Shown piece by piece: positions 9,550 to 39,272 of a DNA stretch of 48,520 nt (within the stretch, counting starts at the first letter, position 1; each line of letters opens with the position of its first letter). Origin of the DNA: Candidatus Undinarchaeota archaeon (GTDB lineage Archaea > SpSt-1190); contig CAZJUS010000002.1 in the NCBI GenBank assembly GCA_964549355.1, positions 1 to 48,520 on the forward strand, written 5' to 3'. The position numbers and the translations under genes are program-made. The notes under the pieces are model-generated. The model did not search any database. It was not told where the DNA came from and was given only the letters and a program-made list of their open reading frames with translations.

Positions 9550-10236
9550 GTGGCCATCCTTTCAATCAAAAAAGTCTGGAAAGAATACAAATTTGTGAAT
9601 GCGTTGCGCGGTGTGGATTTGGACATCAATGAAGGCGAGTTTTTGTTCATAATCGGTCCGAGCGGTTCCGGCAAAAGCACACTTCTTCATATTGCAGGCC
9701 TGCTCGATGCCCCTACAAGGGGGCATGTTGAAATCAACGGAAAACTGGTCCCCCGCGATGAGGACCTCAGGGCGAAGCTCCGGCTGAAATTCATGGGTTT
9801 TGTCTTCCAGGATTTCGGGCTTATGTCGTCCCTCAATGCTTTTGAAAACATAGTCCTGCCCTCCGCCTTCTCCGGGAAGCCCCGGCGGGAAAGGGCCCGC
9901 AGGATTGCAGAGGAGCTCGGCATCGGGAACAGGCTCACCCACTATATCGGCCAGCTCAGCGGGGGCGAGAAGCAGAGGGTTGCCATTGCGCGCGCCCTCA
10001 TCAATGACCCGAAGCTGATTATGGCTGACGAACCGACAGGCAATCTGGACAGCAGGACGGGCCTGAAAGTCATGGAGATTCTCCGTGGCCTTGCAAAGCA
10101 AGGCAAGACTGTGGTGGTGGTCTCCCACAACCCGGAGCACATCAAATTTGCCGACAGGGTTGTCCATTTGAGAGACGGAAAAATTGAAAAAATTCAGAAA
10201 GTGAGGATTGCAAAACCAAAAAATAGTATTAAATAG
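9550..10236 (+). CDS. ABC transporter ATP-binding protein (MacB/LolD-like)
   Basis: Walker A GPSGSGKST, signature LSGGEKQRVAIARAL and Walker B LIMADEPTGNLD. Confidence 0.93.
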   Translation: MAILSIKKVWKEYKFVNALRGVDLDINEGEFLFIIGPSGSGKSTLLHIAGLLDAPTRGHVEINGKLVPRDEDLRAKLRLKFMGFVFQDFGLMSSLNAFENIVLPSAFSGKPRRERARRIAEELGIGNRLTHYIGQLSGGEKQRVAIARALINDPKLIMADEPTGNLDSRTGLKVMEILRGLAKQGKTVVVVSHNPEHIKFADRVVHLRDGKIEKIQKVRIAKPKNSIK

Positions 10237-10249
10237 GGAGGCGGGAGAA

Positions 10250-11533
10250 ATGAATATGAGAAAAGAAATCGCATTGTTGTTCATGATGATGGTTGCAGGT
10301 TTCTCTGCAACCCTGGATTACAGTTCAATTGCCACTTCGCCGAGCACCCTTGATGAGCAAGGCTACGTTTATCTGACTTTCTGCTCCGACAAGGTTGATT
10401 TTGTGAAGTTCAAATTTTCCGCCACTGATTTTGAGGTCCTGCCGGCCTCAATTGATGTGGCTTTTTCGGGGACGACTGCTTCACCGGACTGTGAACAGCT
10501 GGTGGTGTTTGTAAAGTCCAGCCGGCCCGGCCAGTTTCTGCTGAAAGTCACAGGAGACTCCGACGAGTGGCAGGTGCCTGTGGTTTTTGAGAAGAAGCTC
10601 CCGTTTTCCGTTTCAGTCAAGGATTCAGTGGTCCACACCGGCTACACCAGCACCTACCTCACAGTGTCCGGGGAAGGCAGGGACGTCTGGATGGACATAG
10701 ACGGCAATGTCGTCGGCCTTGATTCAATCTACCGCAGCACCCTGCCCGCAAATTTTCCGGTCACTTTTTATTTTGAGCGGGCGGGCTTCTATCAACTGCC
10801 CGTTACATTCACTTATCTTTACGGCAACTCGACTATGACCCGGACTTTCAACCTGGGCCTGCGGGTGGAGGAGGCGCCGGTCAAGATTGGCGACGGCATA
10901 GAAGTTCCGTCAGGAGGGCGGGCCAACCTTTCAATATACATTGAATCCCCTGAGACCCTTTACAGCCCCGCCATTTCTTTATCCTCCCCCTGCCTTGAGG
11001 GCGAGCTCCAGAAGTATCCCGAAGTTTTCACAAAAGGGACAGTCAGCTTCAACGTAAAGTCGACATGCGACCCGGGCATATACCCCCTTACTGTTTCAGT
11101 CGGCGACTTTGTCCGGAATGTTTCAATGGAGGTTACAGGCCCTGAGGGGTATGAACTTTTCTTCAACCCGGATATAGTCAAAGGTGAATCAAGCCTGGAG
11201 GTGGTTATTGCCAACAAGGGAAGCAACGACATGAAGGCTGTTTCAGTCAGGCTGCTGGACGGGGAGTATACCAAAGTGAAGGAAGGCAGTTTTCTGGGCG
11301 ACCTTGAAAGCGGGGATTATGATTCAACCACTTTGAGATTCATCCCGAAAAGAAACCCGGTGGCTGTCAATTTTGTGATATCCTACAATCAAGAAGGACA
11401 GAGGCACAATATAACCCGGAGTCTGACCTTCAGCAGAGTCAAGGCGGGCGTCAGTCCATACCTCATTGTGTTGCTTATAGGAGTTGCTTTCTTTGGGTAT
11501 CATAAATTTAGAAATAGGCGCGCTGGTAATTAA
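10250..11533 (+). CDS. Secreted/anchored beta-rich protein encoded between the ABC ATPase and the permease
   Basis: N-terminal hydrophobic signal (IALLFMMMVAGFSA) and a C-terminal TM anchor with a basic tail (LIVLLIGVAFFGYHKFRNRRAGN). A ggagg lies upstream of the ATG at 10250. Confidence 0.7.
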   Translation: MNMRKEIALLFMMMVAGFSATLDYSSIATSPSTLDEQGYVYLTFCSDKVDFVKFKFSATDFEVLPASIDVAFSGTTASPDCEQLVVFVKSSRPGQFLLKVTGDSDEWQVPVVFEKKLPFSVSVKDSVVHTGYTSTYLTVSGEGRDVWMDIDGNVVGLDSIYRSTLPANFPVTFYFERAGFYQLPVTFTYLYGNSTMTRTFNLGLRVEEAPVKIGDGIEVPSGGRANLSIYIESPETLYSPAISLSSPCLEGELQKYPEVFTKGTVSFNVKSTCDPGIYPLTVSVGDFVRNVSMEVTGPEGYELFFNPDIVKGESSLEVVIANKGSNDMKAVSVRLLDGEYTKVKEGSFLGDLESGDYDSTTLRFIPKRNPVAVNFVISYNQEGQRHNITRSLTFSRVKAGVSPYLIVLLIGVAFFGYHKFRNRRAGN

Positions 11534-14107: not shown

Positions 14108-14809
14108 TTAAATTCTTTTTGGGTCAAAGAACAGTCTGCAGAGGCAGTGGCCGTCCCTTTTGATTTCGTCCAGGTGCCACTTGCATGGGCAGATTTTGTC
14201 TTTGTCTTTTTTCAGGTCGCCGGTGACTGTCCTGCATGGGCAGAAGCGGTAGCCGTATTTTTCCTGATTGGCGGCCAGCCCGGCAATCACTTCCCCAAGC
14301 CTGGGAGGGTCCGGATTCAAGATGAAGTTTTTGGCGTCGGCGTATCTTTTTGAAGCCTCCAGTATCTGCTTGTATTTTTTGCCGGAGGCCGAAAGCGCTG
14401 AAAAAGCCTTGGAGATGCACCTGTCCTCGATGACCCGGGCTCCGTGGCTTTCCATGATTCTCCGGGCTTCCGCACTCCTCAGCCCTTCCTGCATCCAGAA
14501 AATTTTCGGCACCCTTCCGCTTTCGAGCAGTTTTTTTGCGATAGCCGGGATTTCATCCGGAGGCCTGAAGACCACTACAATTTCGAACATCTCTTTTGGA
14601 ACGTCTTCCACCGATTTGAAGGTCTTCTGCCCGAATATCTCATCAGCATTGGGATTCACACATGCCACTTGGAATCCATGGTCTTTCATATTTTTTGGAA
14701 CCGCATGTGCTTCTTTTTCGGGGTGCCTTGAGCATCCAACCACCACCATCCTGTTGAGCAGGTGCAGGAAGCCGAAATCCTCTCCGCCGGCTGAAAATCC
14801 AAATTCCAC
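14108..14809 (-). CDS. Fusion protein: CoA-binding domain + ferredoxin:thioredoxin-reductase catalytic (FTRc)-like domain
   Basis: The N-terminal part VVVGCSRHPEKEAH...VNP...VVVFRPP...WMQEG resembles CoA_binding_2. The C-terminal part has CPCR-x14-CPC-x12-CLC. GTG 14809 is preferred. An ATG at 14860 is also in frame but would overlap the prs ATG head-to-head. Confidence 0.75.
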   Translation of the reverse strand: MEFGFSAGGEDFGFLHLLNRMVVVGCSRHPEKEAHAVPKNMKDHGFQVACVNPNADEIFGQKTFKSVEDVPKEMFEIVVVFRPPDEIPAIAKKLLESGRVPKIFWMQEGLRSAEARRIMESHGARVIEDRCISKAFSALSASGKKYKQILEASKRYADAKNFILNPDPPRLGEVIAGLAANQEKYGYRFCPCRTVTGDLKKDKDKICPCKWHLDEIKRDGHCLCRLFFDPKRI

Positions 14810-14826
14810 ATCTTTTATTGACTCGT

Positions 14827-14838
14827 TATCTTTTAATA
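14827..14838. promoter_or_regulatory. Shared bidirectional AT-rich box (tatcttttaata) between divergent genes
   Basis: It is centred about 24 nt from the prs ATG (14859) and about 23 nt from the minus-strand GTG (14809). Confidence 0.35.
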
Positions 14839-14858
14839 CCTCTGCTTCACAGTCTTTC

Positions 14859-15746
14859 ATGCTTGTCGGGGACGATTTCGGGAAAAAAATTGCGGAGCGG
14901 TTGGGGATGGCTTTTGTGCCTTTTGAAGACCGGAAATTCACGGACGGGGAAATCTGCCCCCGTATTTTGTTCAAGGAGGTGCCCAAAGCAGGGGACGATA
15001 TTGTGTTGGCCATAAACAAGCATGCGGATGAGAGCATCAACGACTATACTTTGAAGGTGTATTTTATGGCAAGGACCTTGTATGACATGGGGCTCAAAAT
15101 TAAACTGGTCTTCCCTTATTTTTCATATGCAAGGCAGGACAAAGTCTTCAGGCAGGGGGAGCCGCTCAGCTCGAACTATGTTGCACAGATGTTTGACCCG
15201 ATTGTTGCTGATTTCATAACAGTCACTGCACATCTCCAGAGGCGTGCCAGCATCGCCCCCCTTTTCAAGCACGCCAGAGCCACTAATGTTTCGGGGGTTC
15301 CGGCCCTGATCCGGGGACTGCCGAAAATCGAAAATCCCTATATCCTCGGCCCCGACACAGAATCCATCCACCAGTCGAAGAAGATGGCAGAGATGATGGG
15401 GGCTTCGGACTACGGTGCATTCACAAAGGTGCGCGATGTGGATACCGGGGCAATACATGTTTCAACAGGGGACATACAACTGGAGGGCCGGAATGTGGTG
15501 ATAGTGGATGATATGGTCTCGACCGGCGGGACCGTGCTGAAGGGCATTGAATTGGCCAGAAAGCTCGGGGCAAGGCAAATCCACATTGCATTCGTCCATG
15601 CAATACTCGCCGGCAGGGCCCTGGAGAAAATAAAAAACATGAAGCCGGATTCAATAGTAGGGGCCAACACTATGGAGAGTCCGGTTTCAGTTGCAGATGT
15701 GACGCCGGAGATTGCCGGGGAGCTTAAAAAAATGGTGAGTGGATAA
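14859..15746 (+). CDS. prs: Ribose-phosphate pyrophosphokinase
   Basis: Contains KFTDGEI, PYFSYARQD and the PRPP loop VVIVDDMVSTGGT. The internal ATG was chosen because the upstream part of ORF 14268 is antisense to the FTRc gene. Confidence 0.9.
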   Translation: MLVGDDFGKKIAERLGMAFVPFEDRKFTDGEICPRILFKEVPKAGDDIVLAINKHADESINDYTLKVYFMARTLYDMGLKIKLVFPYFSYARQDKVFRQGEPLSSNYVAQMFDPIVADFITVTAHLQRRASIAPLFKHARATNVSGVPALIRGLPKIENPYILGPDTESIHQSKKMAEMMGASDYGAFTKVRDVDTGAIHVSTGDIQLEGRNVVIVDDMVSTGGTVLKGIELARKLGARQIHIAFVHAILAGRALEKIKNMKPDSIVGANTMESPVSVADVTPEIAGELKKMVSG

Positions 15747-16344: not shown

Positions 16345-17499
16345 TCATGCCCGGATGTAATCCACAAGCCTCTGCTGTTTTGAAATCAGCGGGAGCAGAC
16401 GGCTCCGGGTTTTCCAGGCTTCCAGACCGCCGAGCTTCTCGCCGACCCTTGCAAGTGCAGTTTCCAAATCCCCGAATTTTTCAGGGCGCCCTGCCAGGGC
16501 TTCCCTGATGCTGTCTCTTACATGCCAAACACCAACAGGAAAAACGTATCCCGGCCCTATCCTGCGGAATACAAAAACAGCAGCCCTCCTCCTGCGGTTT
16601 TCCAGCTGCTTGAGGACCTCCATTCTTGCGGAATAGTAGGCCCCTGTGATATTGCCGGCATAGTCCTTCTTCAGCCTGCCGTATTCATGGTCCTGGGCAA
16701 TCCCGCCCCCCCAGACTGAGCCCCTATGCCAGCTTTCCATCATTTCGAAGGCCCAGCCCCAGGGCGCCATCAATATCACAAACTGGTTGTCCCAGTGGGT
16801 TGTTTCATAAATTTCAAAGTCTGGAATCTCATCATATCTCCGGACTTTTTCAAACAGTTTTTTTGCAATAATGGAGTCGACCGCGGTTATGGCCCACCTT
16901 GTTGGGACCATTTTCCGTTCACTTTTTACGCCGATATTGCCTGTGCTCAAGACGCGGACAGCATAGTCGAATCCAAATTTGCTGTCAAGAAAATCCACAG
17001 CATATTCTGCTTTCAAATCGCAGCTGTCTACAATTTCAAAAATTTTTCCGGGAATCTTTGGAGTATCTTCAAGTGTGATTTTTTTTGCGGCGACAGCCGG
17101 AACTTGGCCGAGGTCAAAATCATTTATTCTAAGGATGGTTTTTAGTTCTGCATTCATCATGACAGGGCGGATGCTGAGGGCGGCTTCTTCAGCAGACCGG
17201 ATGTCCTTCACTTTGAAAGGCCGGACCTGCGCCGATTGGCCTGCAATAAATTCACTCATCGGGATATCCATTGATTTCTCAACAGGATTTCCATTCACAG
17301 ACAGGTGGGGGCCGACTGCAACCCGGGGGTAGTTTTTCCAGGAAACCAGATAGAAAGGGGGCGAAGGCGCCTCGATGTTTTTTTTGTACTTGATGCGCCT
17401 CAAAGTCCTGGCCCTGTCGTAGACCGGGCACCTCGGGAGCCCGCACCACAGCCTGCCCTTGCACCTTATGCATGTCCCTGGACTTATTGAGGCCGCCAC
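16345..17499 (-). CDS. Nre-family (DUF650/DUF651) archaeal DNA-repair-associated protein
   Basis: The N-terminal CIRCKGRLWCGLPRCP zinc motif is characteristic of Nre proteins. The C-terminal QQRLVDYI resembles a PCNA-interacting PIP box. Confidence 0.7.
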   Translation of the reverse strand: MAASISPGTCIRCKGRLWCGLPRCPVYDRARTLRRIKYKKNIEAPSPPFYLVSWKNYPRVAVGPHLSVNGNPVEKSMDIPMSEFIAGQSAQVRPFKVKDIRSAEEAALSIRPVMMNAELKTILRINDFDLGQVPAVAAKKITLEDTPKIPGKIFEIVDSCDLKAEYAVDFLDSKFGFDYAVRVLSTGNIGVKSERKMVPTRWAITAVDSIIAKKLFEKVRRYDEIPDFEIYETTHWDNQFVILMAPWGWAFEMMESWHRGSVWGGGIAQDHEYGRLKKDYAGNITGAYYSARMEVLKQLENRRRRAAVFVFRRIGPGYVFPVGVWHVRDSIREALAGRPEKFGDLETALARVGEKLGGLEAWKTRSRLLPLISKQQRLVDYIRA

Positions 17500-18937: not shown

Positions 18938-18974
18938 GTATGGCTTTAGTTCCGGCCTTTAAAATACCACCAAC

Positions 18975-18982
18975 TTAATATA
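18975..18982 (+). promoter_or_regulatory. TATA-like box (ttaatata) for the 19004 operon
   Basis: It is centred about 25 nt upstream of the GTG at 19004. Confidence 0.35.
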
Positions 18983-19003
18983 GCCCCGAACCCATATGAT
19001 ACT

Positions 19004-20893
19004 GTGGCCGAAGGCAAAAAGGGAGCAGTAGGATCCACAGTCGCACCTCCAGACCAGAATGCCGATTTTCTCACGCAAATCCAGAACACATTCGAGCGGG
19101 GGGTCGTGAGCGCCGAAGTGGACCTCGGAGGGCTCTTTGCCCAGGATGACAAAGGCGGGGGGGGCAGTGTCAAGACCCTTTGGGGGGAGGCCACCCGCAT
19201 CACCACAGGTCCGGCGGGCGCCCAGGAGCAGCTCCTGAAGAAAATGAAGACTATTGCAGATACCTTCGGCGGCAGATTCACAGCCCATGCGCCGATGCAG
19301 GCCGACCCTTCCGAGCTCATGTCCATCAGCAGGACCCGGGCCGCCAACATACTGAAGACTTCAATAAAATACTCTGACAAAATCGGGGCCTCCGTCCTCA
19401 CTGTCCATCCCATAGGGCAGATGCAGTATTACTTCATCGAGCCGTTCACAAATCAAAGGATGCCGGTGCAGAGTCCATTCATGCTGGCCAGAGACGAAAA
19501 AGAGCTTGACAATCTTTTTAAAAAGTACAAAGTGAAGGACTCACTCCTCAAGAAGCAAATCAAAAGTGAATGGGAAAATTTCATTCAGGTCCTCCCGACA
19601 TTCTTCGCTGAAAAATACGGCGCCCAGGCTGCTCAGCTTTTTGACACCTTTGCCATGAGGGCTGCCCAGAAAAATGTCCTGGGAATCGTCGACAGGTTCG
19701 GCGGGGATGTTGACAAGGCATATGATTACGTAAAAAAAGCCAGCGTCCATTACGATCCTCGAGTCGCTCAAAGCATGGAGAACGAGATGCTGAAGATAAA
19801 AGGCAACAACAAGTATTTGGCGAAGCTCAAGAGCGACAGAAGGACTATAGACAGTCATCTGAAAACGCTGTGGCCCAAGATTGCAATAACCACCCTTGAG
19901 CCTATTGATGAGCAAGGGCGCCCGGTCACACTGCCCGAGAATTTCAACTCTTTATCGCCTTCTGAGCAAAGAGAGGTGCACCGCAATGCACGTTTGAAAG
20001 TGGTGAAGAAAGGGTGGGCTGCAATCACCTCGCAGGGCAGGTTCGGGCCTTTTGATGAAGCCATCAAGGATATCGAGCATTCCGTCAAGGACACTTTCCG
20101 CAGATTGCTCTCAGACAAGGAAGTCAAAAAAATACTGAGGAAGGGCAAATTGAAAATCGGCATTGAGAATCTCTTCCCTGCCGTGCCTGAGAAGGGATAC
20201 ATGCAGGGGTTCGCCCACTTTTACAAGCCGGAGCACATGGCCAAGCTGGTGAAGGATGTGAGGGCGATTGCGAGGGCGAACGGCATCCCCGACGATGCCA
20301 TCACCATCACTTTTGATGTGGGCCATGCAGCGGCTTCAGGCGTAAAGCCCAGCAAATTTTTGGCGGAGCTGAAGAAGCGCGGTGTCAAGCCGGGCCATGT
20401 CCACCTGGTCGGAGGCCCCGGATACGGCCACGGCCATATCGCATGGGGCGACTGGCTTGATGAGGTGAGCAGGATGGACCCCGGCATAATCGCCAAGCTC
20501 ACCGACATGGGAGTCATTAATATTGAAGGCGGTGCCGGCCTCTACGACACCGAGGTAACACTCAACGCCATGTGGAACGAGGGTGTGCCCCTTGAAGCTT
20601 TGATGGCTATGGCGGGCGGACCCCAGCCAAGCATGGGGGATCTGCGGTATGCCGGATTCAAAGCTCCGCCGTATTGGGCGGAAGTTGCGGAGAGGTTCCG
20701 CGGGACTGGGTTTGCCCAGAGAGCATTTTATTCCTTCAGCACGGAAACAATGGGGGCCCCCATGCGGACGGCGTTCGGTTCATATTCCATGCCGGGCATG
20801 TACGGCGGGGGATATTCACTGGGTCCCGGGCTCACCCCCCGCATATGGGGCGGAGCCCAGCCTCTACTGTATTCGGCGAAGAAAAAAGGTTGA
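19004..20893 (+). CDS. Large xylose-isomerase/Endo-IV-like TIM-barrel protein with a long internal insertion and a Gly/Tyr/Pro-rich tail
   Basis: Metal-ligand-like motifs appear in family order: TAHAPM, LTVHPIG, IGIENL, FDVGHAAASG, HVHLVGG..GHGH. About 230 aa lie between TVHP and IGIEN. The tail is SMPGMYGGGYSLGPGLTPRIWGG. Confidence 0.6.
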   Translation: MAEGKKGAVGSTVAPPDQNADFLTQIQNTFERGVVSAEVDLGGLFAQDDKGGGGSVKTLWGEATRITTGPAGAQEQLLKKMKTIADTFGGRFTAHAPMQADPSELMSISRTRAANILKTSIKYSDKIGASVLTVHPIGQMQYYFIEPFTNQRMPVQSPFMLARDEKELDNLFKKYKVKDSLLKKQIKSEWENFIQVLPTFFAEKYGAQAAQLFDTFAMRAAQKNVLGIVDRFGGDVDKAYDYVKKASVHYDPRVAQSMENEMLKIKGNNKYLAKLKSDRRTIDSHLKTLWPKIAITTLEPIDEQGRPVTLPENFNSLSPSEQREVHRNARLKVVKKGWAAITSQGRFGPFDEAIKDIEHSVKDTFRRLLSDKEVKKILRKGKLKIGIENLFPAVPEKGYMQGFAHFYKPEHMAKLVKDVRAIARANGIPDDAITITFDVGHAAASGVKPSKFLAELKKRGVKPGHVHLVGGPGYGHGHIAWGDWLDEVSRMDPGIIAKLTDMGVINIEGGAGLYDTEVTLNAMWNEGVPLEALMAMAGGPQPSMGDLRYAGFKAPPYWAEVAERFRGTGFAQRAFYSFSTETMGAPMRTAFGSYSMPGMYGGGYSLGPGLTPRIWGGAQPLLYSAKKKG

Positions 20894-20897
20894 TGAT

Positions 20898-21767
20898 ATG
20901 GAAATAAGAAAAAAACAAGATGTGGTTGACGAAGCGGCCAAAAAGCAGCTTCGTGCGGAGGACGTTTCAAAGGTCTATGACTTCACGGCTGAAGTCGCAA
21001 AAAAATTCGGCACTTTCATAAAGGCGGTCGTTGTCTTCGGCTCCTTTGCAAGGGAGCGGAAGGAGGCCAGCAACGATATTGACATAATGGTCATAGTGGA
21101 CGATTCCTTCGCCCCGCTCGACCAGGCCCTGCTGATTGCCTTCCAGAATGAGATGGGGAGGCTGATGAAGGATTACCCCCAGATGCACATAAACTCAGTC
21201 ACCATAAGCCAGTTCTGGGACTCGGTCCGGAGAGGGGACCCTCTGGTCATTTCAGTGCTGAAGGACGCCATACCTGTTTTCGATTTGGGCTTCTTTTCAC
21301 CGCTCCAGAGGCTGCTGATGCAGGGCAAAATCAGGCCCACTCAGGAGGCGGTCAATGTGGCGGTGTCCCGTGCGTTCTTCAACCTCAACAGCTATTCGCA
21401 CATAGTGAACAACGCCCTCCTGGCCCTGTACAACGCAGCGGTCGAGGCAGCCCATGCAGCGGTCATGTCCTACGGCAGGATTCCGGGCTCCCACAGGGAG
21501 GTGGCCGGCCTGCTCAGGGAAACTGCAGTGAAGGACGGCAAGCTGACGGAGGAGGACGTGAAAGTTTATGAGGAGCTTTTTGACACCATGAAAAAAATTG
21601 AGAAGGGGGAGCTAGATTATATAAAACCCGACCGCTTGGAAGAGATCCACAAGAAAACTGTGGATTTCGTAGGCAAAATTGAAAGCTCAATCAACCTTGA
21701 AGCTTTGAAGCAGGCCACAGAAAAGCAGGAGCCTCCCGCCGACGAATCAAAGACAAAGGAAGTGTGA
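20898..21767 (+). CDS. Nucleotidyltransferase (Pol-beta/MNT-type) + HEPN fusion protein, paralogue 1
   Basis: The NTase motif is GSFARERKEASNDIDIMVIVDD. The C-terminal helical domain carries an R-x4-H motif (GRIPGSH). Confidence 0.75.
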   Translation: MEIRKKQDVVDEAAKKQLRAEDVSKVYDFTAEVAKKFGTFIKAVVVFGSFARERKEASNDIDIMVIVDDSFAPLDQALLIAFQNEMGRLMKDYPQMHINSVTISQFWDSVRRGDPLVISVLKDAIPVFDLGFFSPLQRLLMQGKIRPTQEAVNVAVSRAFFNLNSYSHIVNNALLALYNAAVEAAHAAVMSYGRIPGSHREVAGLLRETAVKDGKLTEEDVKVYEELFDTMKKIEKGELDYIKPDRLEEIHKKTVDFVGKIESSINLEALKQATEKQEPPADESKTKEV

Positions 21768-23062
21768 AGATGGTTAAAGCGACACCAACAGCCAGAGGCC
21801 AGAAACAGATTGAAGTCAAGGACGGCTCCAGCCCCCTGGAAGCTGAAGATAAAGCTTTTGAGCAGAAGGAAGCGAAAAGACGGATTTCCAGCAGGCAGGT
21901 CGAGGCAGCCAAGAAGAAGCAGAAGACCTTCTACAAAATGAAGATGAAGGCCGTCGAGCGCTTCTCCGTCGCAGCCCGCCAGAAGCTGGGCGCCATGCTC
22001 AAGGGCGTTGCGGTAATTGGCAGTCTGGCCCGCGGGGACTTTGTGCCCGGCTCCGATATAGATGTCCTCGTTGTAGTTGATGACACCAAGCGCGAGGTCC
22101 CGAGCGAGCTGAAGGAGAAGCTCCTGGCCATGCTCAACGACATGGGCAGGAAGATAGACAAAAAAATGCAGGTGCAGATCCACACCCTCACTGAGATGTT
22201 CCAGTTCGCCAAGGAGGGCGACAATATAATCTACAATTTCCTCCGCCACATGAAGATAGTCTATGACGGCGGCGTGCTGACGCCTTTCACCCGCCTGCTC
22301 AAGACCGGCGAAATAAAGCCCACTAAGGAGGCTATGATGCGCAGCCTGGACGGTGCGGAGTACTATATGAAGAAAATCGAGCAGTACATAGAGTGGATTC
22401 TTGAAAGATATTACCGCGGAGTTACGTGGTCCGCCAATGCCTACATTATGAGTCTGGGCGAGAGCCCCGCTGCGGTGCCGGAGATTCCCATAGTCCTCCA
22501 GAGCAAAGTTGATGAAGGCCTCCTGCCCCCGGAAATTCCAGCCATTGCAGCAGAGACCATCAAAGTTTTCAAGGCGGTCGAGCATGGGGACGGAAAGCCC
22601 GAGCTGAAAGTGGCTTTTGAGCTTGAACCCAAAGTCCGCCATTTTATTGCAGTCCTGAAGAAGGAAGTGGTGGGCTCTCTGGTCAGCAAGAGCGTCGGCA
22701 CTGCTGTCAAATCCAAAATCAAAACCATGCCTAAAATCATATTTGAGTTCAGCAAGCACAGGGCTTTTGTCTGGCTGCTGGACGGGGGCATCTATATGGC
22801 AGTCTACCGCGGAGGCAAGCTCAGCAAGGTCTACAAGGCGCAGATAAAGGACGGGGTAGTGGCCAGCTTCAAGGCCACCAAGAACGACGCCCTCTTCAAG
22901 GCCATGGAGCAGAGCTCCCTCAAGCCTTTGGTAAACGGCAAGCTCATCAAGAAGATTTACAGCAAGCTGCCCGCCGATGTGAAGGCTCCGGTGAAGAAGC
23001 TGGCGGTTGAATACCCCGGCAGGGCCATGCTGGATTTGACGGGCTCAATCAAGCTGGCGTAA
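21764..23062 (+). CDS. Nucleotidyltransferase + HEPN-like fusion protein, paralogue 2, with a roughly 130-aa C-terminal extension
   Basis: The NTase motif is GSLARGDFVPGSDIDVLVVVDD. It is collinear with paralogue 1 (LKTGEIKPTKEAM vs LMQGKIRPTQEAV), but the R-x4-H position reads LGESPAAV. It has a GTGA overlap with the upstream gene. Confidence 0.75.
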   Translation: MKMVKATPTARGQKQIEVKDGSSPLEAEDKAFEQKEAKRRISSRQVEAAKKKQKTFYKMKMKAVERFSVAARQKLGAMLKGVAVIGSLARGDFVPGSDIDVLVVVDDTKREVPSELKEKLLAMLNDMGRKIDKKMQVQIHTLTEMFQFAKEGDNIIYNFLRHMKIVYDGGVLTPFTRLLKTGEIKPTKEAMMRSLDGAEYYMKKIEQYIEWILERYYRGVTWSANAYIMSLGESPAAVPEIPIVLQSKVDEGLLPPEIPAIAAETIKVFKAVEHGDGKPELKVAFELEPKVRHFIAVLKKEVVGSLVSKSVGTAVKSKIKTMPKIIFEFSKHRAFVWLLDGGIYMAVYRGGKLSKVYKAQIKDGVVASFKATKNDALFKAMEQSSLKPLVNGKLIKKIYSKLPADVKAPVKKLAVEYPGRAMLDLTGSIKLA

Positions 23063-24265: not shown

Positions 24266-24880
24266 ATGAAACTTCAAGTAGCCCTGGACATGACCAGCTA
24301 TGCAGACGCCATCTCGACTGCCAAGATGGTGGCCCCTTTTGTGGATATCATTGAAGTCGGCACGCCTCTGCTGAAATCAGAAGGCATGAGGACTGTGAGG
24401 CAGCTCCGGCACCTGTTTCCGGAAGGAGTCATACTGGCGGACACCAAGACCTCAGATGTGGCTTTCCTCGAAGCCGGGCTGGCAAAGAAGGCAGGGGCCG
24501 ACTACTTCACTGTCATGGCCCTGGCGCCCCACAGCACCCTCAAAGAAGCCCTCCGGGCCAGGAAGGAGCTCGGCATAAAAGTGGCGGTGGATTTCATTGG
24601 AGTCAAGGATAAGCTTGCCAAAATCAACGACCTGAAGGGCAGGGGGTTTGACGCCTTCATCCTCCACACCGCCATCGACGAGGGGCGCTTTGAGTGCAAG
24701 GAGCTGGACAAACTCAAAAAGAAGCCGTCGGAAGCCATCTTTGTCTCGGGCGGCATAAACGCAGGGACCATCCCCAAAATTGACCGGAGCAAAGTCGATG
24801 TGGTTATTGTCGGCAGGGCCATCACCTCAACCCATGACCCTGCGGGGGTGGCCCAGATATTCAAGCGCCTGGTGGAGTGA
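24266..24880 (+). CDS. hps: 3-hexulose-6-phosphate synthase (OMP-decarboxylase superfamily)
   Basis: Contains MKLQVALD, IIEVGTPLLKSEG and LADTKTSD motifs. Confidence 0.85.
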   Translation: MKLQVALDMTSYADAISTAKMVAPFVDIIEVGTPLLKSEGMRTVRQLRHLFPEGVILADTKTSDVAFLEAGLAKKAGADYFTVMALAPHSTLKEALRARKELGIKVAVDFIGVKDKLAKINDLKGRGFDAFILHTAIDEGRFECKELDKLKKKPSEAIFVSGGINAGTIPKIDRSKVDVVIVGRAITSTHDPAGVAQIFKRLVE

Positions 24881-25368
24881 GTGTCTTGGAGTTCTTTGCG
24901 GTCCGGAGCGGAGAAGACAATCCAAAAAAATGCACTGCGGTTCGGCTGGCAAAACTGGGGGAATTGAAGCTGGTGGACTCGCCGGCCGGCCTGCTCCTCA
25001 ACCCGTTTTCAGAGCGGATTTTATGCGGGGCTTGCGGCCGTGAATATCGGCGGGTCACTGCCCTTGACGTCAGCTGGAATCTGCTTGAAGCTTTTGTTGG
25101 ATACAGACCTGCAGCCAGACTGCCGTTTCTGGTGGCGGCCAACCCGGTGAATTACGGCAAACCGCACAAGCTCTCCACTGCCGAGGCCCTGGCCTCCGCT
25201 GCATGGATTATGGGGGCTCCGGATGACGCCCGCAGGCTCATGGCTCCATTCAAATGGGGCGGACATTTCCTCGACCTCAACCGGGAGAGGCTGGATGCAT
25301 ACCGCAATGCAGCGGAAGACACCATACGGGAAGCGGAGAAGCGGATGATGAGCGTGCTCCTTGAGTAA
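24877..25368 (+). CDS. tsr3: 16S rRNA aminocarboxypropyltransferase Tsr3 (DUF367)
   Basis: Contains DNPKKCTAVRL and ANPVNYGKPHKLSTAEALASAAWIMG. It has a GTGA overlap with hps. Confidence 0.85.
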   Translation: MSVLEFFAVRSGEDNPKKCTAVRLAKLGELKLVDSPAGLLLNPFSERILCGACGREYRRVTALDVSWNLLEAFVGYRPAARLPFLVAANPVNYGKPHKLSTAEALASAAWIMGAPDDARRLMAPFKWGGHFLDLNRERLDAYRNAAEDTIREAEKRMMSVLLE

Positions 25369-25399: not shown

Positions 25400-25573
25400 A
25401 TGACAGCTTCAGTAACCGACAGGATATTCGACAGAGTGTTCATATGCATGAAGTGCAATGCCAGCATCAGGGCGGACCCAGCCAAGGTGCGCGCCGGCAG
25501 AATCAAATGCAGGAAGTGCGGTTACAACAAGCTGAGGCCGAAAAAACGTTCCAGAAAAGGTAAGACCAAATGA
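25400..25573 (+). CDS. rpl40e: 50S ribosomal protein eL40
   Basis: 57 aa with ICMKCNASI...KCRKCGYNKLRPKK. The internal ATG of ORF 25361 was used. Confidence 0.8.
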   Translation: MTASVTDRIFDRVFICMKCNASIRADPAKVRAGRIKCRKCGYNKLRPKKRSRKGKTK

Positions 25574-26328
25574 TGGATGTATTTGCCCCGGAGAAGGCAG
25601 TGCTTTTAACTTTGTTCTCAGTGGTGGCCATTAAGCTGGCAGGGGCCAAGATGTTCCTGGTCTTCCCGCTCTTCATGTTCTTCCTGGGCTTCAACGGACT
25701 GAGCTCCTGCTCCCTGGTGGATATCGACAGGCTCTATAACCCCAAGAAAGACCTGCCCAGCGGAAAAATCGGCATACTTGACTCTTTCCGCATTTCACTT
25801 CTGCTGGTAATTTTTTCCATTCTTGCCTCAATATACTCCGATTCACTTATAGCCACTGTCGCTTTGGTCTTGATTGGGATGAGCTCTGTCGCCATTCGGC
25901 TTAACTATACTTTTCTGTCCAATCTCATTGAGAGCCTTACCTTTTTCTTTGCAATGCTTGTTCCTTCATTCACAACTTCACGCTTTATTTACAACTTTCC
26001 GCTGGCGTGGGGGGTTGCACTCATGTTCTTCTTGATGCACCTCTCCAAAGGCCTCGAAAGACCTTATGGGTTTGAAAACTTGAATCTGCCGAAAATTGTC
26101 GGGGTGGAAACCTCAAAGTATATTTTTGCAATGGTAAGCTTCCTGGCAGTTATTTGGGGGCTGGCGCCTGCAGTGCTGATGTCCCTTGGATACAACTTGG
26201 TCTATCCTTTCTCAATGTCTGCCTTGTCCATCGCAGTGTATCTGACGCTGACGGACCGGCACAAGGAGGCTGGAAGGGCTTTGAAAGCAGCGTCCGTGCT
26301 TTATCTGCTGGCATTCCTTCTTTTATAG
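25570..26328 (+). CDS. UbiA-family prenyltransferase-like membrane protein
   Basis: Polytopic membrane protein. SLVDIDRLYNPKKDLPSGKI resembles the first Asp-rich motif of UbiA/DGGGP synthases. Confidence 0.65.
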   Translation: MMDVFAPEKAVLLTLFSVVAIKLAGAKMFLVFPLFMFFLGFNGLSSCSLVDIDRLYNPKKDLPSGKIGILDSFRISLLLVIFSILASIYSDSLIATVALVLIGMSSVAIRLNYTFLSNLIESLTFFFAMLVPSFTTSRFIYNFPLAWGVALMFFLMHLSKGLERPYGFENLNLPKIVGVETSKYIFAMVSFLAVIWGLAPAVLMSLGYNLVYPFSMSALSIAVYLTLTDRHKEAGRALKAASVLYLLAFLLL

Positions 26329-27270
26329 CTTTGACAGCATTTCAGCCAGGTCTCCGAGGCTGTACCGCGCCCCATTGTGGGACCCGTCGAAGATGCGGAC
26401 ATTGTCCGGCGTAAACTTGGGCCCCGCAATCAGCATGGGCTGGTCAAGCCCGGTGTTTTCGGTTGTAGTCCCGCAGACAATCACCGTTTCCTTTTCCGAC
26501 AGGGCAATAAGAGGCAGAAGAAGCTTATCGACTTTTTCCAAACCTGATTTGGTCTTTTCGCCGAACACTGCAATTTTTTTATGAGGGCCGGCAGGCCCAA
26601 GAGCTTTATTCACACAGGCAAAGTCCTTCACTTTTTTCATTCCAAGGATTTTGATTAATCCGTTGAATTTCTGTGAATCGCAGGACATGCATGCATTCAC
26701 TTTCAAAGGGGTTTTCTTAATTTTTCCAAATCCTTTCAGGATTGGATATCTCCCTGTTTTTTCATTCAAGATGTCCGAGAAAGTCCTCAGGGCTTTTGAT
26801 GTGGCCTTTGCGCCGGCTTCAACTGGTGCAACTTTATTCACTGCACCGTCTTTGATTGTGTTCCCTGCCACATTCTCCGAGCCTTTGTAGATGACGAAGC
26901 TCTGCCCCTTGAGCGTCTTCAGCTCAAATTCAAAAGAGCCGACCCGGATTTTCATATCCTGCGGTGCTTTCAAATCTTCAAGGATTTCCATGGACTTGTT
27001 GATTTTTACAAAGTCGGCCAGCGCAACAGTTTTTCCAAACGCATTGAGTCCCCTCGACAGCGCTTCAAGGGGGCCCAAACCCGGGAATGGATCCCGGCTG
27101 GCAATCTTCCAGACGAATTCCAGACTCGGGAGTGCTTTCCAGCCGGTTGTCACGTGCCCCGTCCGTCCGAGTTCGGCCAGCCTGTCGAGTATGGGCGTCT
27201 GGGCTTCCGCCAGGCTCCCGCGGTTGCCGAGGTTCTCAATCAGGACCATCATCATGGCCACCTCATCCAC
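26323..27270 (-). CDS. ApgM / alkaline-phosphatase-superfamily-like protein, divergent
   Basis: The N-terminus MVLIENLGNRGSL..AQTPILDRLAELGRTGHV parallels the ApgM pattern (I)LDGxxD...TPxLDxLAxxG, but the acidic metal ligands are not evident. Confidence 0.4.
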   Translation of the reverse strand: MDEVAMMMVLIENLGNRGSLAEAQTPILDRLAELGRTGHVTTGWKALPSLEFVWKIASRDPFPGLGPLEALSRGLNAFGKTVALADFVKINKSMEILEDLKAPQDMKIRVGSFEFELKTLKGQSFVIYKGSENVAGNTIKDGAVNKVAPVEAGAKATSKALRTFSDILNEKTGRYPILKGFGKIKKTPLKVNACMSCDSQKFNGLIKILGMKKVKDFACVNKALGPAGPHKKIAVFGEKTKSGLEKVDKLLLPLIALSEKETVIVCGTTTENTGLDQPMLIAGPKFTPDNVRIFDGSHNGARYSLGDLAEMLSKL

Positions 27271-29527: not shown

Positions 29528-30328
29528 ATGACATCCGAAAAATACAAAGTCCTTGTGCTTGGAGATTTGGAAATTTTTAACCAACTGCTTGCCCGCTATG
29601 AACGGCCGGAGCCAAAAAGTGACATATCCACTCCGCTGGAAGATTTTGAATTTATTACGCAGGAATTTGAAAACCCTTATGAGGTCCATAATCACTTCAA
29701 AAAATTAGGGCCATTTTTTCCCGGGCACACATATTCGGATATTTTTGTAGTTTTTGATGGCGAAATTAATGACGAAGTGCCGGCGCTTGACAAATATGAT
29801 ACGACTGTCTGGTATTTCAACCAGGATGATGTAAAAAAATTCAACAGATTTTTTAGGCGTGGCACATCGGACAAGCTTATCAGGCATCTCAAACAGGCCA
29901 TTGCAAAACCATACATTTACAAGCTGCTGGTTTTTGACCGCAATAATACTTTTGGGGAAGCCATGAAACTGGTGCCGTATGAATTGTGTGAAAAATACTA
30001 TCATTCCTATGAGGAGGATGGGAAGCGGATGGGGGAATTTGTTTCCCCCAAGCACGGGAGGATGGAATTTGAACTACGGGACAGGCCCACCAATTCCGAC
30101 AGCGTCTGGTATGATTTTTACATTGCAGTCGGAGACAAAGGAAAACGCAACCTGCGCAGGAGCACCAAGCTCCCTGGAAGGGAAGCATACTTTCTTGAGG
30201 GAAGGCCGCATGAGGTTTCGGCTCAGATAAGTAAGATTTTAAAGCAACGGCAATTGCCCCGCAGGCCGGGTGTCCTGATAGGCGTCCGTTATCACCTTGA
30301 CGGCAGGATTTCGGGGAACTATCTGTGA
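29528..30328 (+). CDS. Orphan protein (266 aa) inserted inside the hydrogenase gene cluster
   Basis: Long ORF that looks lower in GC than its neighbours. The N-terminal KVLVLGD resembles a GTPase beta-1 strand, but no P-loop follows. No family was recognised. Confidence 0.6.
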   Translation: MTSEKYKVLVLGDLEIFNQLLARYERPEPKSDISTPLEDFEFITQEFENPYEVHNHFKKLGPFFPGHTYSDIFVVFDGEINDEVPALDKYDTTVWYFNQDDVKKFNRFFRRGTSDKLIRHLKQAIAKPYIYKLLVFDRNNTFGEAMKLVPYELCEKYYHSYEEDGKRMGEFVSPKHGRMEFELRDRPTNSDSVWYDFYIAVGDKGKRNLRRSTKLPGREAYFLEGRPHEVSAQISKILKQRQLPRRPGVLIGVRYHLDGRISGNYL

Positions 30329-33526: not shown

Positions 33527-33762
33527 TAGCGGAAGCTGCCATCTTTGCCGTCTGCCTTTACGGTTTGATGAGGGAGGGCGATATACTGAAGGTGGCTGCG
33601 ATAGTGAGCTTCCTGGCATACCCCGCAATTCTGCTTTTTGCCAAGGCCGGCGCTGAGCAGGCGGTCCTGCTGATACTGGCCATAGAGGCGGTGCCTTTTG
33701 CATTCTCAATTCTGCTGCTGAAAATTGTGGGGCGGAGGAATTACAGGGTGATGTGGAAATGA
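33523..33762 (+). CDS. NuoK/MrpC-like membrane subunit
   Basis: 79 aa, with hydrophobic helices in a pattern typical of MnhC/NuoK (AIFAVCLYGLM...ILAIEAVPFAFSILLL). Confidence 0.65.
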   Translation: MIAEAAIFAVCLYGLMREGDILKVAAIVSFLAYPAILLFAKAGAEQAVLLILAIEAVPFAFSILLLKIVGRRNYRVMWK

Positions 33763-35195
33763 TAGTGGTGCTTTTGCTCTTGGTTGCCGGTGCCGTCCTG
33801 TCTTTCATAAGCCCCCTTGCTTCTGTGGTGGCTGCGGGGGCGTCGCTGGCATGGGCTTTGTTTTTTGGGGCTTCAATGACTGAGCTGATATCCCTGCTGG
33901 TGGGCTTCTCGACCCTGCTGTTCGCCCTCTGGTATCTGAAGGAGGAGCACCTGAAAAAAGAATTCTTCTCCGCCATGGCGGTTTTTCTTGCAGCCATGCT
34001 CCTTTTCCTCCAGTCTGCCGACTGGATTCAGATGTATATCGCGTGGGAGTTCATGGGCTTTTGTTCGTATATCCTGATTGCCCAGAAGTCAACAATAGCA
34101 AGCCGGAAGGCCGCCCGGAAGGCCTTCATATTCAGCAGGCTGAGCGGGGTGTGCTTCCTGGCCGCCGTTGCCCTGATTTATGCCCAGACAGGCTCCTTCA
34201 GCTTCTCGGTCATACCAGCCCTGCCGGCCGTCCTGCTCCTGGTTGCAGCTATGGCCAAATCATCCCAGTTCCCCTTTTTCTGGCTCCACGACGCCATGGA
34301 GGCCCCCACGCCCGCGTCGGCCCTGCTCCACTCCGCCACCATGGTTGCCGCCGGCCCCCTGCTCCTTGCCAGGTTCCCTGACTTTTTTGTATTCCTGCTT
34401 CCTGCCATAAAAATCTGGGCAGCGGTCTCAATTGCAGTTGCATCCTTCGCTGCCCTCGTCCAGGAGCACCAGAAGAAGGTGCTGGCATTTTCGACTGTGG
34501 CTGCCGTCGCCTTCCTTTACACCATCTTCGACTCGGCTTTGCTGCCTTGGGCCTTTTCAGTCCACGCCCTGCTGAAGTCGGCATTGTTCCTGCTGGTGGG
34601 CACTTATGCTTCGTCCGTGAATTACTCCATGGAGGTGGGCCTGGACAAGAGATCCCGCACTTCATATCTGACTTTGTTCATCATACTTGCTTTGTCGGGG
34701 GTCCCGCCTTTCGGCCTCTTTTGGTTCAAGGCTGCTGAAGGCCCCATCGCAGCTTTGACCGTGTTTTTGTCCCTGCTTTATTTCCTCCGCTCATATTTCC
34801 TGACCTTTTCCGGGGGCGTAAAACCGCAGGAGAGCATCGGCACTCTTTTGGCAGGAGTTCTTGCAGCAGTTTCAATTCCCCTCTCCATTCACTTTTTTTC
34901 AGTTCCACAGGATGTGCTGTCCTTTTTCTTGTCTGCAATAGCAATAGCGTTTGTTTCGTTCCGCTTCAGCCCGCTGCAGTTTATAGGCAATGCAGCAAAT
35001 TGGCTTGCCTCATATGAACCGCGCGTAGATTATGTGCCGGAAGGGTTGATTGACAAATGGGGGTATGATTTCGGAATCAGCGTGAGGCATGCGTCAAAGA
35101 AAATTCATTCACTGTTTACGGGGCCAGTCAGCAAAGATATCGGATATATCGCCCTTTCACTGGCTGCTCTTGCATTGGGGGTGAAATTGTGCTGA
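33753..35195 (+). CDS. NuoL/MrpA-type proton-translocating antiporter-like subunit
   Basis: Contains WEFMGFCSYILI and KSSQFPFFWLHDAMEAPTPASALLHSATMVAAG. Confidence 0.9.
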   Translation: MEMIVVLLLLVAGAVLSFISPLASVVAAGASLAWALFFGASMTELISLLVGFSTLLFALWYLKEEHLKKEFFSAMAVFLAAMLLFLQSADWIQMYIAWEFMGFCSYILIAQKSTIASRKAARKAFIFSRLSGVCFLAAVALIYAQTGSFSFSVIPALPAVLLLVAAMAKSSQFPFFWLHDAMEAPTPASALLHSATMVAAGPLLLARFPDFFVFLLPAIKIWAAVSIAVASFAALVQEHQKKVLAFSTVAAVAFLYTIFDSALLPWAFSVHALLKSALFLLVGTYASSVNYSMEVGLDKRSRTSYLTLFIILALSGVPPFGLFWFKAAEGPIAALTVFLSLLYFLRSYFLTFSGGVKPQESIGTLLAGVLAAVSIPLSIHFFSVPQDVLSFFLSAIAIAFVSFRFSPLQFIGNAANWLASYEPRVDYVPEGLIDKWGYDFGISVRHASKKIHSLFTGPVSKDIGYIALSLAALALGVKLC

Positions 35196-38857: not shown

Positions 38858-39160
38858 ACCCATCCACCTGAATGGTGTGAATACAATACGGACGAGTGTG
38901 CCTGCCAGATAGCCGATGAAGAGCTTGCCTCCGAAAAGCATGGCTGCCGGGGACGCGGTCCAGTTGGTCGACAGGGCATAAAAACTTGCAGGCAGTACTG
39001 CCGCCAGCAGAGAAAAGACAGAGCCCACCAATCTGCTGACGCTCCCGCGGGTGAAAAGGCCGACAGCAAGCCCGACGGCTATTGGAAGGATCAGACTGCC
39101 TGTTCCGAGATGTATTGGGATGAACCATGAGGCGAGGCCCAGCAGTATGAGTTCAAGCAT
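38831..39160 (-). CDS. Small membrane protein (109 aa)
   Basis: Three or four hydrophobic segments. The ATG (39160-39158) directly abuts the 3' end of tRNA-Lys. Confidence 0.5.
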   Translation of the reverse strand: MLELILLGLASWFIPIHLGTGSLILPIAVGLAVGLFTRGSVSRLVGSVFSLLAAVLPASFYALSTNWTASPAAMLFGGKLFIGYLAGTLVRIVFTPFRWMGSLFKRTGK

Positions 39161-39233
39161 CGGGCCCGGGGGGATTCGAACCCCCGGCCACTGGGTTAAA
39201 AGCCCAGCGCTCTACCGACTGAGCTACGAGCCC
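39161..39233 (-). tRNA. tRNA-Lys (anticodon UUU), no encoded CCA, no intron
   Basis: The minus strand reads GGGCTCG TA GCTC AGTCGGTA GAGC G CTGGG CTTTTAA CCCAG TGGCC GGGGG TTCGAAT CCCCC CGGGCCC G. This folds as a full cloverleaf with one G-U pair in the acceptor stem. Confidence 0.93.
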
Positions 39234-39272
39234 GAACTTTCACGAAGTTCGATCACGGTGCCTGCTTCGCCT

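Follow-up and report, generated by a model that had tools for sequence, protein, structure and literature searches.

Layout and co-conservation of the TIM, P1, and P2 genes

This work concerns three consecutive genes on a stretch of 48,520 nucleotides (hereafter, the window) from a Candidatus Undinarchaeota archaeon (SpSt-1190; contig CAZJUS010000002.1). They encode a TIM-barrel protein (TIM) and two proteins, P1 and P2, in each of which a nucleotidyltransferase (NTase) domain is fused to a helical HEPN-like domain. In the list of open reading frames (ORFs) of the window, the three genes lie on the same (+) strand almost without spacers; their positions are as follows.

18955 to 18985, + strand: candidate archaeal promoter elements (cctttaaaata, ttaatata), read from the sequence, upstream of the TIM gene
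19004 to 20893, + strand: TIM gene, 629 aa; endonuclease IV/MJ1311-like (AP_endonuc_2) TIM barrel, predicted from profile and alignment to be a metallo-phosphoesterase
20898 to 21767, + strand: P1 gene, 289 aa; NTase plus HEPN-like four-helix bundle, similar to kanamycin nucleotidyltransferase (KNTase); acidic, pI 5.6
21770 to 23062, + strand: P2 gene, 430 aa (432 aa from GTG 21764); NTase plus helical bundle plus extra C-terminal domain; pI 9.7, net charge +26

The 66-nt intergenic region 5' of the TIM gene is common to a divergent glycosyltransferase gene (GT4) and contains TATA-like strings, and a gap of 4 nt separates the TIM stop codon from P1. The ATG of P2 at 21770 lies 2 nt past the P1 stop codon, is preceded 7 nt upstream by a Shine-Dalgarno-like motif (aaggaag), and is the start used in the stored gene call (P0043, 430 aa, beginning MVKATP). 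An earlier reading of this DNA, made from the sequence alone (hereafter, the original prediction), had described P1 and P2 as translationally coupled through a GTGA overlap. Two consecutive same-strand ORFs are indeed tightly packed whichever start is used, but the overlap hinges on the alternative start GTG 21764, which was judged less likely than ATG 21770 in view of the stored call and the Shine-Dalgarno-like motif. The transcription unit may extend past P2 into the GT2, OMP-decarboxylase, and Tsr3 genes because these downstream same-strand genes are separated by short gaps. The OMP-decarboxylase/HPS-family gene and the Tsr3 (Ribo_biogen_C) gene, at 24266 to 25368, come after the triad and GT2 in the same orientation and overlap each other by 4 nt.

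Word-indexed searches yielded about 40 P1-like, about 25 P2-like, and 18 TIM-like proteins, often on contigs equal in length; the named ones are labelled Candidatus Altiarchaeota. In a scan of one genome per GTDB species, the hosts of the P1 family were metagenome-assembled genomes (MAGs) labelled Ca. Altiarchaeota (DPANNHV bins), Ca. Undinarchaeota, and Micrarchaeum sp., and a relative at 28% identity was found in one Aenigmatarchaeota MAG. Hidden Markov models of the three families were run on all fetched loci, and the 16 distinct loci with enough flanking sequence were counted. The order TIM, P1, (0 to 4 unrelated genes), P2 is found in 16/16 of them, with P1 and P2 always in a 1:1 ratio and the TIM gene always directly upstream of P1 (16/16 each); it is also kept in pairs just 37 to 43% identical to those of the window. 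A lack of co-conservation of the three genes had been set beforehand as a possible refutation of the original prediction, and the TIM-P1-P2 order recurs at every locus counted. The P1 and P2 genes overlap or sit 2 nt apart in the window and in one related locus (L001). Synteny outside the triad (GT4, TFS, a membrane protein, and TFB) is confined to close relatives. In three diverged triad loci, P1 and P2 are separated by inserts of 240 to 310 aa encoded on the opposite strand (L002, 8938 to 9867; L006, 6168 to 6902; L022, 6858 to 7661; all on the - strand), whose Pfam matches are weak and sub-threshold and include coiled-coil-type families.

The window itself is core chromosome. It encodes RtcB, PRPP synthase, Nre, TFS, GT4, the triad, GT2, OMP-decarboxylase/HPS, Tsr3, TFB, Mrp-type antiporter subunits, tRNA-Lys, and RNA polymerase B/A; neighbours at related loci include L35Ae, GINS, RNA polymerase L, DNA ligase, CCA-adding enzyme, Taw1, TsaD, TYW3, and SepF. 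No integrases, CRISPR, mobile-element, or defence-island genes were found near the triad. PADLOC returned only generic matches of the P1 and P2 NTase cores to candidate systems (PDC-S09, PDC-M05A) and none for TIM, and NCBIfam only sub-threshold generic NTase matches for P1 and P2. TIM-P1-P2 is a vertically inherited housekeeping gene set of DPANN archaea, which are tiny symbionts, and a toxin-antitoxin or defence role is unlikely in view of the vertical conservation of the genes, amid chromosomal housekeeping neighbours, across several DPANN lineages. The role in defence or stress response suggested by the original prediction is not borne out by these neighbours, by the vertical conservation, or by the sub-threshold PADLOC and NCBIfam matches; RNA modification, which it also raised, is possible.

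Domain architecture of P1, P2, and TIM

P1 and P2 share 29% identity across 233 aa (BLASTP, E = 7e-20) and are paralogues. Both match NTase families of Pfam above the gathering cut-offs: P1 scores 33.7 bits for PF18765 (cut-off 26.9) and 31.9 for PF01909 (cut-off 21), and P2 scores 39.5 for PF01909 (cut-off 21). The motifs and domains discussed below are located as follows.

21039 to 21083, + strand: P1 catalytic motif G48-S49 ... D60-x-D62, invariant in 40/40 P1 orthologues
21099 to 21104, + strand: P1 D68-D69, invariant, following G48-S49/D60-x-D62
21477 to 21494, + strand: P1 R194-I-P-G-S-H199 (GRIPGSH, the "R-x4-H" string), not conserved; family consensus [KR][VI]PGSP
22019 to 22063, + strand: P2 catalytic motif G84-S85 ... 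D96-x-D98 (numbering from ATG 21770), intact in 23/24 P2-family sequences
22454 to 22477, + strand: P2 LGESPAAV, opposite P1 GRIPGSH in the P1/P2 alignment
22682 to 23059, + strand: P2 C-terminal domain, about 125 aa (residues ~305 to 430); AF2 pLDDT above 90

We aligned 212 family domains (40 P1, 24 P2, and 148 wider relatives) to one profile. The GS/DxD motif is intact in 195 of these; it has degenerated in the P2 orthologue P0042 (locus L006), where G-S has become E-S and D-x-D has become P-x-E. Residues that are invariant or nearly so in both paralogues and in the wider family comprise G-S, D60, D62, D68-D69, D129, G143, P147, E150, M190, P196, and K232, among which any of the invariant acids D68, D69, and D129 may, judging from the alignment, supply the third catalytic carboxylate. 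The helical domain of P1 has further invariants of its own, including K144, R158, Y166, E183, and H186; the P2 residues matching E183 and H186 are W and N, and P2 has its own invariant set in this domain. With their catalytic residues intact, P1 and P2 are predicted to be active NTases, and the Pol-beta-type core with G-S and D-x-D that the original prediction had assigned to both paralogues stands.

AF2 models of P1 and P2, built from 27 and 22 orthologues (mean pLDDT 84 and 83), show an NTase core of four strands that leads into a long bundle of four helices; the N-terminal ~36 residues of P2 are modelled as disordered and are Lys-rich. Foldseek searches of the PDB (E values of 1e-5 to 1e-3) retrieved MNT antitoxins, the full-length two-domain enzymes ANT(4'), AadA, AAD(9), and LinB, and HalB. 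The matches to ANT(4'), AadA, AAD(9), HalB, and MNT have E values of 1e-4 to 1e-5 and span 220 to 300 columns, and the alignments to 1kny, 6p01, and 6un8 span 260 to 300. KNTase is also the best PDB match of the family profiles. As modelled, P1 and P2 are KNTase-like two-domain enzymes composed of an NTase domain and a HEPN-like bundle, in agreement with the duplicated, kanamycin nucleotidyltransferase-like architecture proposed originally.

The presence of HalB among the best structural matches bears on one alternative, in which P1 and P2 would synthesise a nucleotide second messenger or an oligonucleotide, as HalB, CD-NTases, OAS, and class I adenylate cyclase do, and TIM would be the phosphodiesterase that degrades the product. 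HalB, from the Hailong system, is a two-domain NTase that makes oligodeoxyadenylate, and demonstrates that untemplated polymerisation of nucleotides is within reach of this architecture; relatives of P1 and P2 weakly match Adenyl_cycl_N, P1 and P2 themselves weakly match oligonucleotide-cyclase models of CBASS/PADLOC, and the pairing of a synthase with a hydrolase is typical of such systems. However, all of these matches are confined to a core of ~30 to 60 aa around GS/DxD and fall far under the cut-offs (NCBIfam HalB, 17 to 20 bits, e.g., 19.9, where 190 is required). Nor is any effector or receptor gene conserved along with the triad, which has neither a HalA-like effector partner nor a defence context. 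We consider a signalling nucleotide improbable.

The helical domains adopt the HEPN fold. The bundle of the P1 model matches the HEPN protein AF0298 (2hsb) with E = 4.2e-3 and a target TM score of 0.63 in Foldseek, and P2, which has a P1-like helix pattern, aligns with P1 throughout the HEPN-like bundle. The assignment of HEPN-like domains in the original prediction holds at the level of this four-helix fold but not at that of the Pfam HEPN profile (PF05168), for which P1 scores 14.0 bits against a cut-off of 22 (E = 0.056), P2 gives no match, and the best relative scores 19.9 bits. A single-sequence phmmer search aligns GRIPGSH of the window P1 with the R-x4-H motif of AF0298; this match is lost once the family profile replaces the single P1 sequence against the PDB, and KNTase is then the best match. 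R194 and H199 occur together in only 1 of the 212 aligned domains, that of the window P1. Pro occupies position 199 in 36/40 P1 orthologues and 120/148 wider relatives, and in the P2 family this position is V (16/24) or P (7/24); the P1 orthologues read [KR]-[VI]-P-G-S-P or A/S-x-P-A-S-P at the motif, in which S198 is nearly invariant (38/40 P1 sequences). P2 does read LGESPAAV where P1 has GRIPGSH, as had been pointed out, but the contrast between one paralogue with and one without R-x4-H is a one-off of the window P1 and does not describe the family; the same holds for the idea of an RNase-competent HEPN domain in P1 beside a degenerate copy in P2. Because R and H coincide in 1/212 domains, the AF0298 match disappears with the family profile, and PF05168 stays below its cut-off, these domains are predicted to have the HEPN fold without being HEPN RNases. 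According to Anantharaman et al. (PMC3710099), a HEPN domain that is fused to MNT is as a rule devoid of the RNase residues and binds the substrate in domesticated enzymes, e.g., KNTase and GlnE.

The leading idea of the original prediction was a fused type VII (MNT-HEPN) toxin-antitoxin or anti-virus module, in which the R-x4-H-bearing HEPN domain of P1 would act as an RNase toxin curbed by nucleotidylylation. The literal motif in the window P1 and its alignment with AF0298 speak for it, as do a weak match to MntA_antitoxin and the PADLOC matches of the NTase core. The type VII systems share the HEPN fold of the helical domain and provide the closest structural matches of the NTase domain (7ae2, 7ae9, 7bxo, and 6m6u). 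In P1 and P2, however, the two domains are fused in one chain, neither R-x4-H nor the AMPylated Tyr is conserved, and the MntA model NF047752 gives 26.2 bits (P1) and 20.3 bits (P2) against a cut-off of 60. Nor is the distribution patchy or mobile: the triad is strictly vertical and syntenic in a core chromosomal context, lies apart from mobile-element and defence-island genes, and includes a TIM protein to which PADLOC has no match. With the motif restricted to a single domain, this explanation is already largely refuted by conservation, and we regard it as highly improbable. Taken as a whole, the original prediction was right in its observation, the architecture, the TIM link, and co-conservation, and went astray in the R-x4-H contrast, in its emphasis on RNase, toxin-antitoxin, and defence functions, and probably in the GTGA overlap.

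P2 carries an additional C-terminal domain, given as about 130 aa in the original prediction, which is confidently folded in the AF2 model and measures about 125 aa. It is built of a β-meander of four strands, then two helices and one last strand, and is strongly conserved among orthologues, with P17, K18, W31, and E110-x-P112-G-R114-A115 invariant (domain numbering). A search of 16 orthologous copies against Pfam and of the domain profile against PDB sequences gave no match, and no relative of the domain is among the matches listed for whole-chain Foldseek searches against the PDB and viral models. The domain has a net charge of +17 and contributes to the strongly basic character of P2 (whole-protein net charge +26); the pI values of P1, TIM, and P2 are 5.6, 9.4, and 9.7, respectively.

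The link to a metal-dependent TIM-barrel enzyme, encoded 4 nt upstream of P1, is borne out. TIM resembles MJ1311 and endonuclease IV (Nfo) and appears to keep most of the metal ligands. The TIM family profile matches MJ1311 (3wqo) with E = 1.8e-14 and endonuclease IV (8edd) with E = 3.4e-5, and TIM belongs to the AP_endonuc_2 superfamily; the window copy scores 25.7 bits for this Pfam family, below the cut-off of 31.1, which is exceeded by orthologues from L022 (47.5 bits) and L085 (54 bits). In 17 orthologues, H95, H135, E388, D438, H441, H467, H478, D486, and E508 are invariant, and the motifs HAP (H95), HP (H135), EN (E388), FDxGHA (D438/H441), HVH (H467), H478, and IE (E508) coincide with those in the alignments to MJ1311 and endonuclease IV. 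Endonuclease IV has nine metal ligands around a trinuclear centre, to which H95, H135, E388, D438, H441, H467, H478, and E508 probably correspond in part. TIM differs from both proteins in being twice as large, in that the barrel is split by a helical, Lys/Glu-rich insertion of ~230 aa (residues ~142 to 372), and in its conserved Gly/aromatic C-terminal tail, which ends in QPLLYS.KK. A canonical PIP box in this tail was considered and rejected, as the aromatic pair is absent. The best reading of the TIM sequence is a metal-dependent phosphoesterase; H95 and H135 form a pair typical of endonuclease IV, which makes a sugar isomerase less likely.

The identity of TIM also bears on a small-molecule alternative, in which P1 and P2 would nucleotidylylate a sugar, cyclitol, lipid head-group, or antibiotic and TIM would be an enzyme of the sugar-phosphate isomerase/epimerase type, perhaps connected with the neighbouring glycosyltransferases. 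The source annotation of one TIM orthologue reads "sugar phosphate isomerase/epimerase", GT4 and GT2 flank the triad in the window and in close relatives, and aminoglycoside and lincosamide NTases (KNTase ANT(4'), AadA, AAD(9), LinB), in which a Pol-beta NTase likewise precedes a helical HEPN-like domain, are the best full-length structural matches. Against this, the glycosyltransferase neighbours are kept in close relatives only (9 loci) and lost in diverged triad loci, and the TIM invariants include the endonuclease IV-specific H95/H135, with a profile that matches endonuclease IV and MJ1311. Sequence similarity to the ANT enzymes is limited to ~55 residues around GS/DxD, and the resistance models score 15 to 24 bits against cut-offs of 340 to 500 (for ANT_4p_I of NCBIfam, 20.7 bits for P1 and 15.3 for P2 against 350). 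P1 and P2 are not resistance genes; both reside on the chromosome, are inherited vertically, and have a phosphoesterase as partner. DPANN archaea, moreover, have very little small-molecule metabolism. A small-molecule substrate seems to us a poor prospect.

Proposed cooperation of P1, P2, and TIM

The wider family offers a view of how the two modules may be arranged. An exhaustive profile search of 1.84 billion representatives placed 518 clusters in the NTase-helical family at E <= 1e-10 and 245 at E <= 1e-30. Five of the best 150 family clusters are single-chain tandems, [NTase-helical]x2; many members of ~600 aa are arranged as NTase-NTase-helical-helical, and many of ~400 aa have a second helical copy. 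Loss of catalytic residues is frequent in the second module (P0042, P0092, P0193, and P0218). In 20 long family members, the domain fusions found were extra NTase or helical copies only, plus one weak helix-hairpin-helix match. The latter is an N-terminal HHH_5 match (E = 1e-3) before the NTase domain of P0181 (517 aa) and may point to binding of nucleic acid in that lineage. KNTase is a dimer whose active sites are built from both subunits. From the tandem-fusion relatives (as Rosetta-stone fusions), the 1:1 co-occurrence of P1 and P2, the degenerate second modules, and the KNTase dimer, we infer a P1-P2 heterodimer.

Some distant relatives also keep a TIM-like neighbour. Of the loci of more distant, single-copy relatives, 38 extend at least 2.1 kb upstream, and 11 of these have an orthologous gene, for an AP_endonuc_2 protein of ~640 aa, directly upstream on the same strand; this protein scores 54 bits in Pfam and aligns with the TIM family in hhalign with 93.6% probability and 41% core identity. 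At L023 (Aenigmarchaeota), a lone NTase-HEPN gene is preceded by a gene of the AP_endonuc_2 type, but profile comparison of the latter with the TIM family was not significant, and it was not counted as orthologous. Recurrent neighbours of other kinds were noted beside the single-copy NTase-helical gene at the metagenomic wider-family loci L030 to L104: TYW3 directly downstream (11 loci), a DUF483 protein (21), a small methyltransferase (19), SepF (5), and, in 27 loci, a protein of ~476 aa with weak sub-threshold CARDB and Peptidase_M73 matches.

The explanation we favour, and hold to be reasonably probable, is that P1 and P2 are domesticated MNT-HEPN fusions that form a pseudo-symmetric heterodimer transferring nucleoside monophosphate (NMP), and that this heterodimer and the TIM phosphoesterase act on a shared, probably polyanionic, substrate. 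What was observed, and underlies it, is the domain architecture, intact NTase residues, no conserved RNase motif, strict TIM-P1-P2 co-conservation, the housekeeping context, and the tandem-fusion relatives. Within a composite active site, the HEPN-like bundle would most likely account for the half that binds the substrate and mediates dimerisation. Catalysis would fall to the acidic subunit, P1, and P2 would be the basic subunit, whose extra C-terminal domain may grip the substrate; that the substrate is polyanionic is suggested by the pI of TIM and by the pI and net charge of P2 (+26, with +17 contributed by the extra domain). The pair would move NMP onto a hydroxyl of a conserved cellular substrate, and the co-transcribed TIM metallo-phosphoesterase would prepare or remove a phosphoester on the same substrate.

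As a substrate class for the favoured heterodimer, we would prefer nucleic-acid ends, with cleaning of 3' ends and untemplated nucleotide addition in DNA repair or in tRNA/rRNA end maintenance, since an endonuclease IV-type phosphoesterase is paired with a Pol-beta NMP transferase and HalB polymerises. In its fullest form, this would make the triad a DPANN-wide nucleic-acid end-processing machine derived from a domesticated toxin-antitoxin module, in which TIM cleans 3' ends, P1-P2 adds untemplated nucleotides, and the basic domain of P2 holds the substrate, i.e., a minimal repair or RNA-tailing system peculiar to symbiotic archaea with reduced genomes. This more specific proposal is tentative, and we put it forward as one possibility.

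Protein could take the place of nucleic acid as the acceptor. P1 and P2 might AMPylate or UMPylate Ser, Thr, or Tyr residues of a housekeeping protein, or of each other, and TIM might remove the nucleotide, giving a reversible switch of the GlnE/GlnD or MntA/HepT type. MNT antitoxins, whose structures are the best matches (7ae9, 7bxo), AMPylate a HEPN tyrosine, P2 weakly matches GlnD uridylyltransferase models (E ~ 1e-6), and a Ser, S198, is near-invariant (38/40 P1 sequences) in the loop where true HEPNs bear R-x4-H; an NTase adjoining a phosphodiesterase also fits a writer/eraser logic. We know of no TIM barrel of the endonuclease IV type that acts as a de-AMPylase. The GlnD score amounts to 28 bits against a cut-off of 519, no target protein is co-conserved beyond the triad at the related loci, and the strong positive charge of P2 and TIM suits a polyanion better than a protein. 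Domestication of MNT-HEPN into protein-modifying enzymes has been described (PMC3710099). On balance, a protein switch appears unlikely.

Several observations weigh against the heterodimer acting with TIM on nucleic acid. At 80 more distant metagenomic loci, there is mostly one NTase-helical gene of ~270 aa, whose product is presumably a homodimer, and a TIM-like gene occurs anywhere in the fetched sequence in ~25 of the 80, being directly upstream in just the 11/38 mentioned above. The catalytic residues of P2 are intact in the window clade, so that P2 could act alone. The closest structures (ANT, AadA, and MNT) work on small molecules or proteins, not nucleic acids, and Pfam and PDB profile searches detected no known nucleic-acid-binding domain. 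The TIM position equivalent to the endonuclease IV ligand D229 is G, E, or Q and is not conserved, and MJ1311 reportedly lacks the DNA-binding groove of endonuclease IV. The P1-P2 complex, like its functional coupling to TIM and the nature of the substrate, is something that we infer from the comparisons above.

Relation to described families, other window features, and significance

A DPANN-specific cluster, cls.004259 (NEQ050), has been described as "MNT fused to HEPN ... typically in house-keeping context" (Makarova et al. 2019; Makarova, Wolf, Koonin, PMC6393860); where that paper treats the cluster, it calls it "most probably a toxin-antitoxin module" and lists it as a priority dark-matter target of unknown function. 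The P1/P2 family resembles it, by description, in the MNT-HEPN fusion, the DPANN hosts, the housekeeping context, and a conservation unusual for a gene derived from a toxin-antitoxin module, and has thus probably already been flagged as this DPANN "MNT fused to HEPN" dark matter. The same part of the paper is silent on an endonuclease IV-like partner, on the P1/P2 pair and tandem fusions, on the missing R-x4-H, and on the additional C-terminal domain. A literature search on NEQ050, MJ1311, and Undinarchaeota with nucleotidyltransferase found nothing specific beyond PMC6393860, PMC3710099, and a table entry giving MJ1311 as an endonuclease IV homologue. The triad, the paralogue/tandem-fusion pattern, and the extra basic domain appear to be undescribed.

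A few other features of the window were recorded. The PRPP-synthetase-like protein (Pribosyltran_N plus Pribosyltran; 14268 to 15746, + strand) has an unmatched N-terminal extension of ~200 aa, its first Pfam match starting at residue 203, and the archaeal Nre gene (Nre_N plus Nre_C; 16345 to 17499, - strand), three genes upstream of the triad, is syntenic in 6 close relatives only. Four sizeable ORFs have no Pfam match (10208 to 11533, +; 25570 to 26328, +; 26323 to 27270, -; 29528 to 30328, +); the one at 25570 to 26328 encodes a membrane protein of 252 aa and keeps its place downstream of the triad in 9 related loci. Between 32000 and 38000, the AT skew is strongly negative (-0.23 to -0.31), coinciding with three consecutive genes for Mrp/Nuo-type antiporter membrane subunits (33753 to 37512), and it probably stems from the T-rich codons of membrane proteins. 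The sole Rfam match in the window is tRNA-Lys(UUU) (39160 to 39234, - strand), a single gene upstream of the RNA polymerase B''/B'/A'/A'' operon.

About 4 kb is devoted to the triad even though the genomes of DPANN archaea are among the smallest of any cell. Where there was a vague toxin-antitoxin-like annotation, there is now a concrete enzyme-pair hypothesis: non-RNase proteins with intact NTase residues, recurring as pairs and tandem fusions and coupled in the genome to an endonuclease IV-like phosphoesterase. If the substrate does turn out to be nucleic-acid ends, the triad would represent a new minimal pathway of repair or RNA maintenance, and would clearly exemplify the domestication of a toxin-antitoxin module for a core function of the cell.

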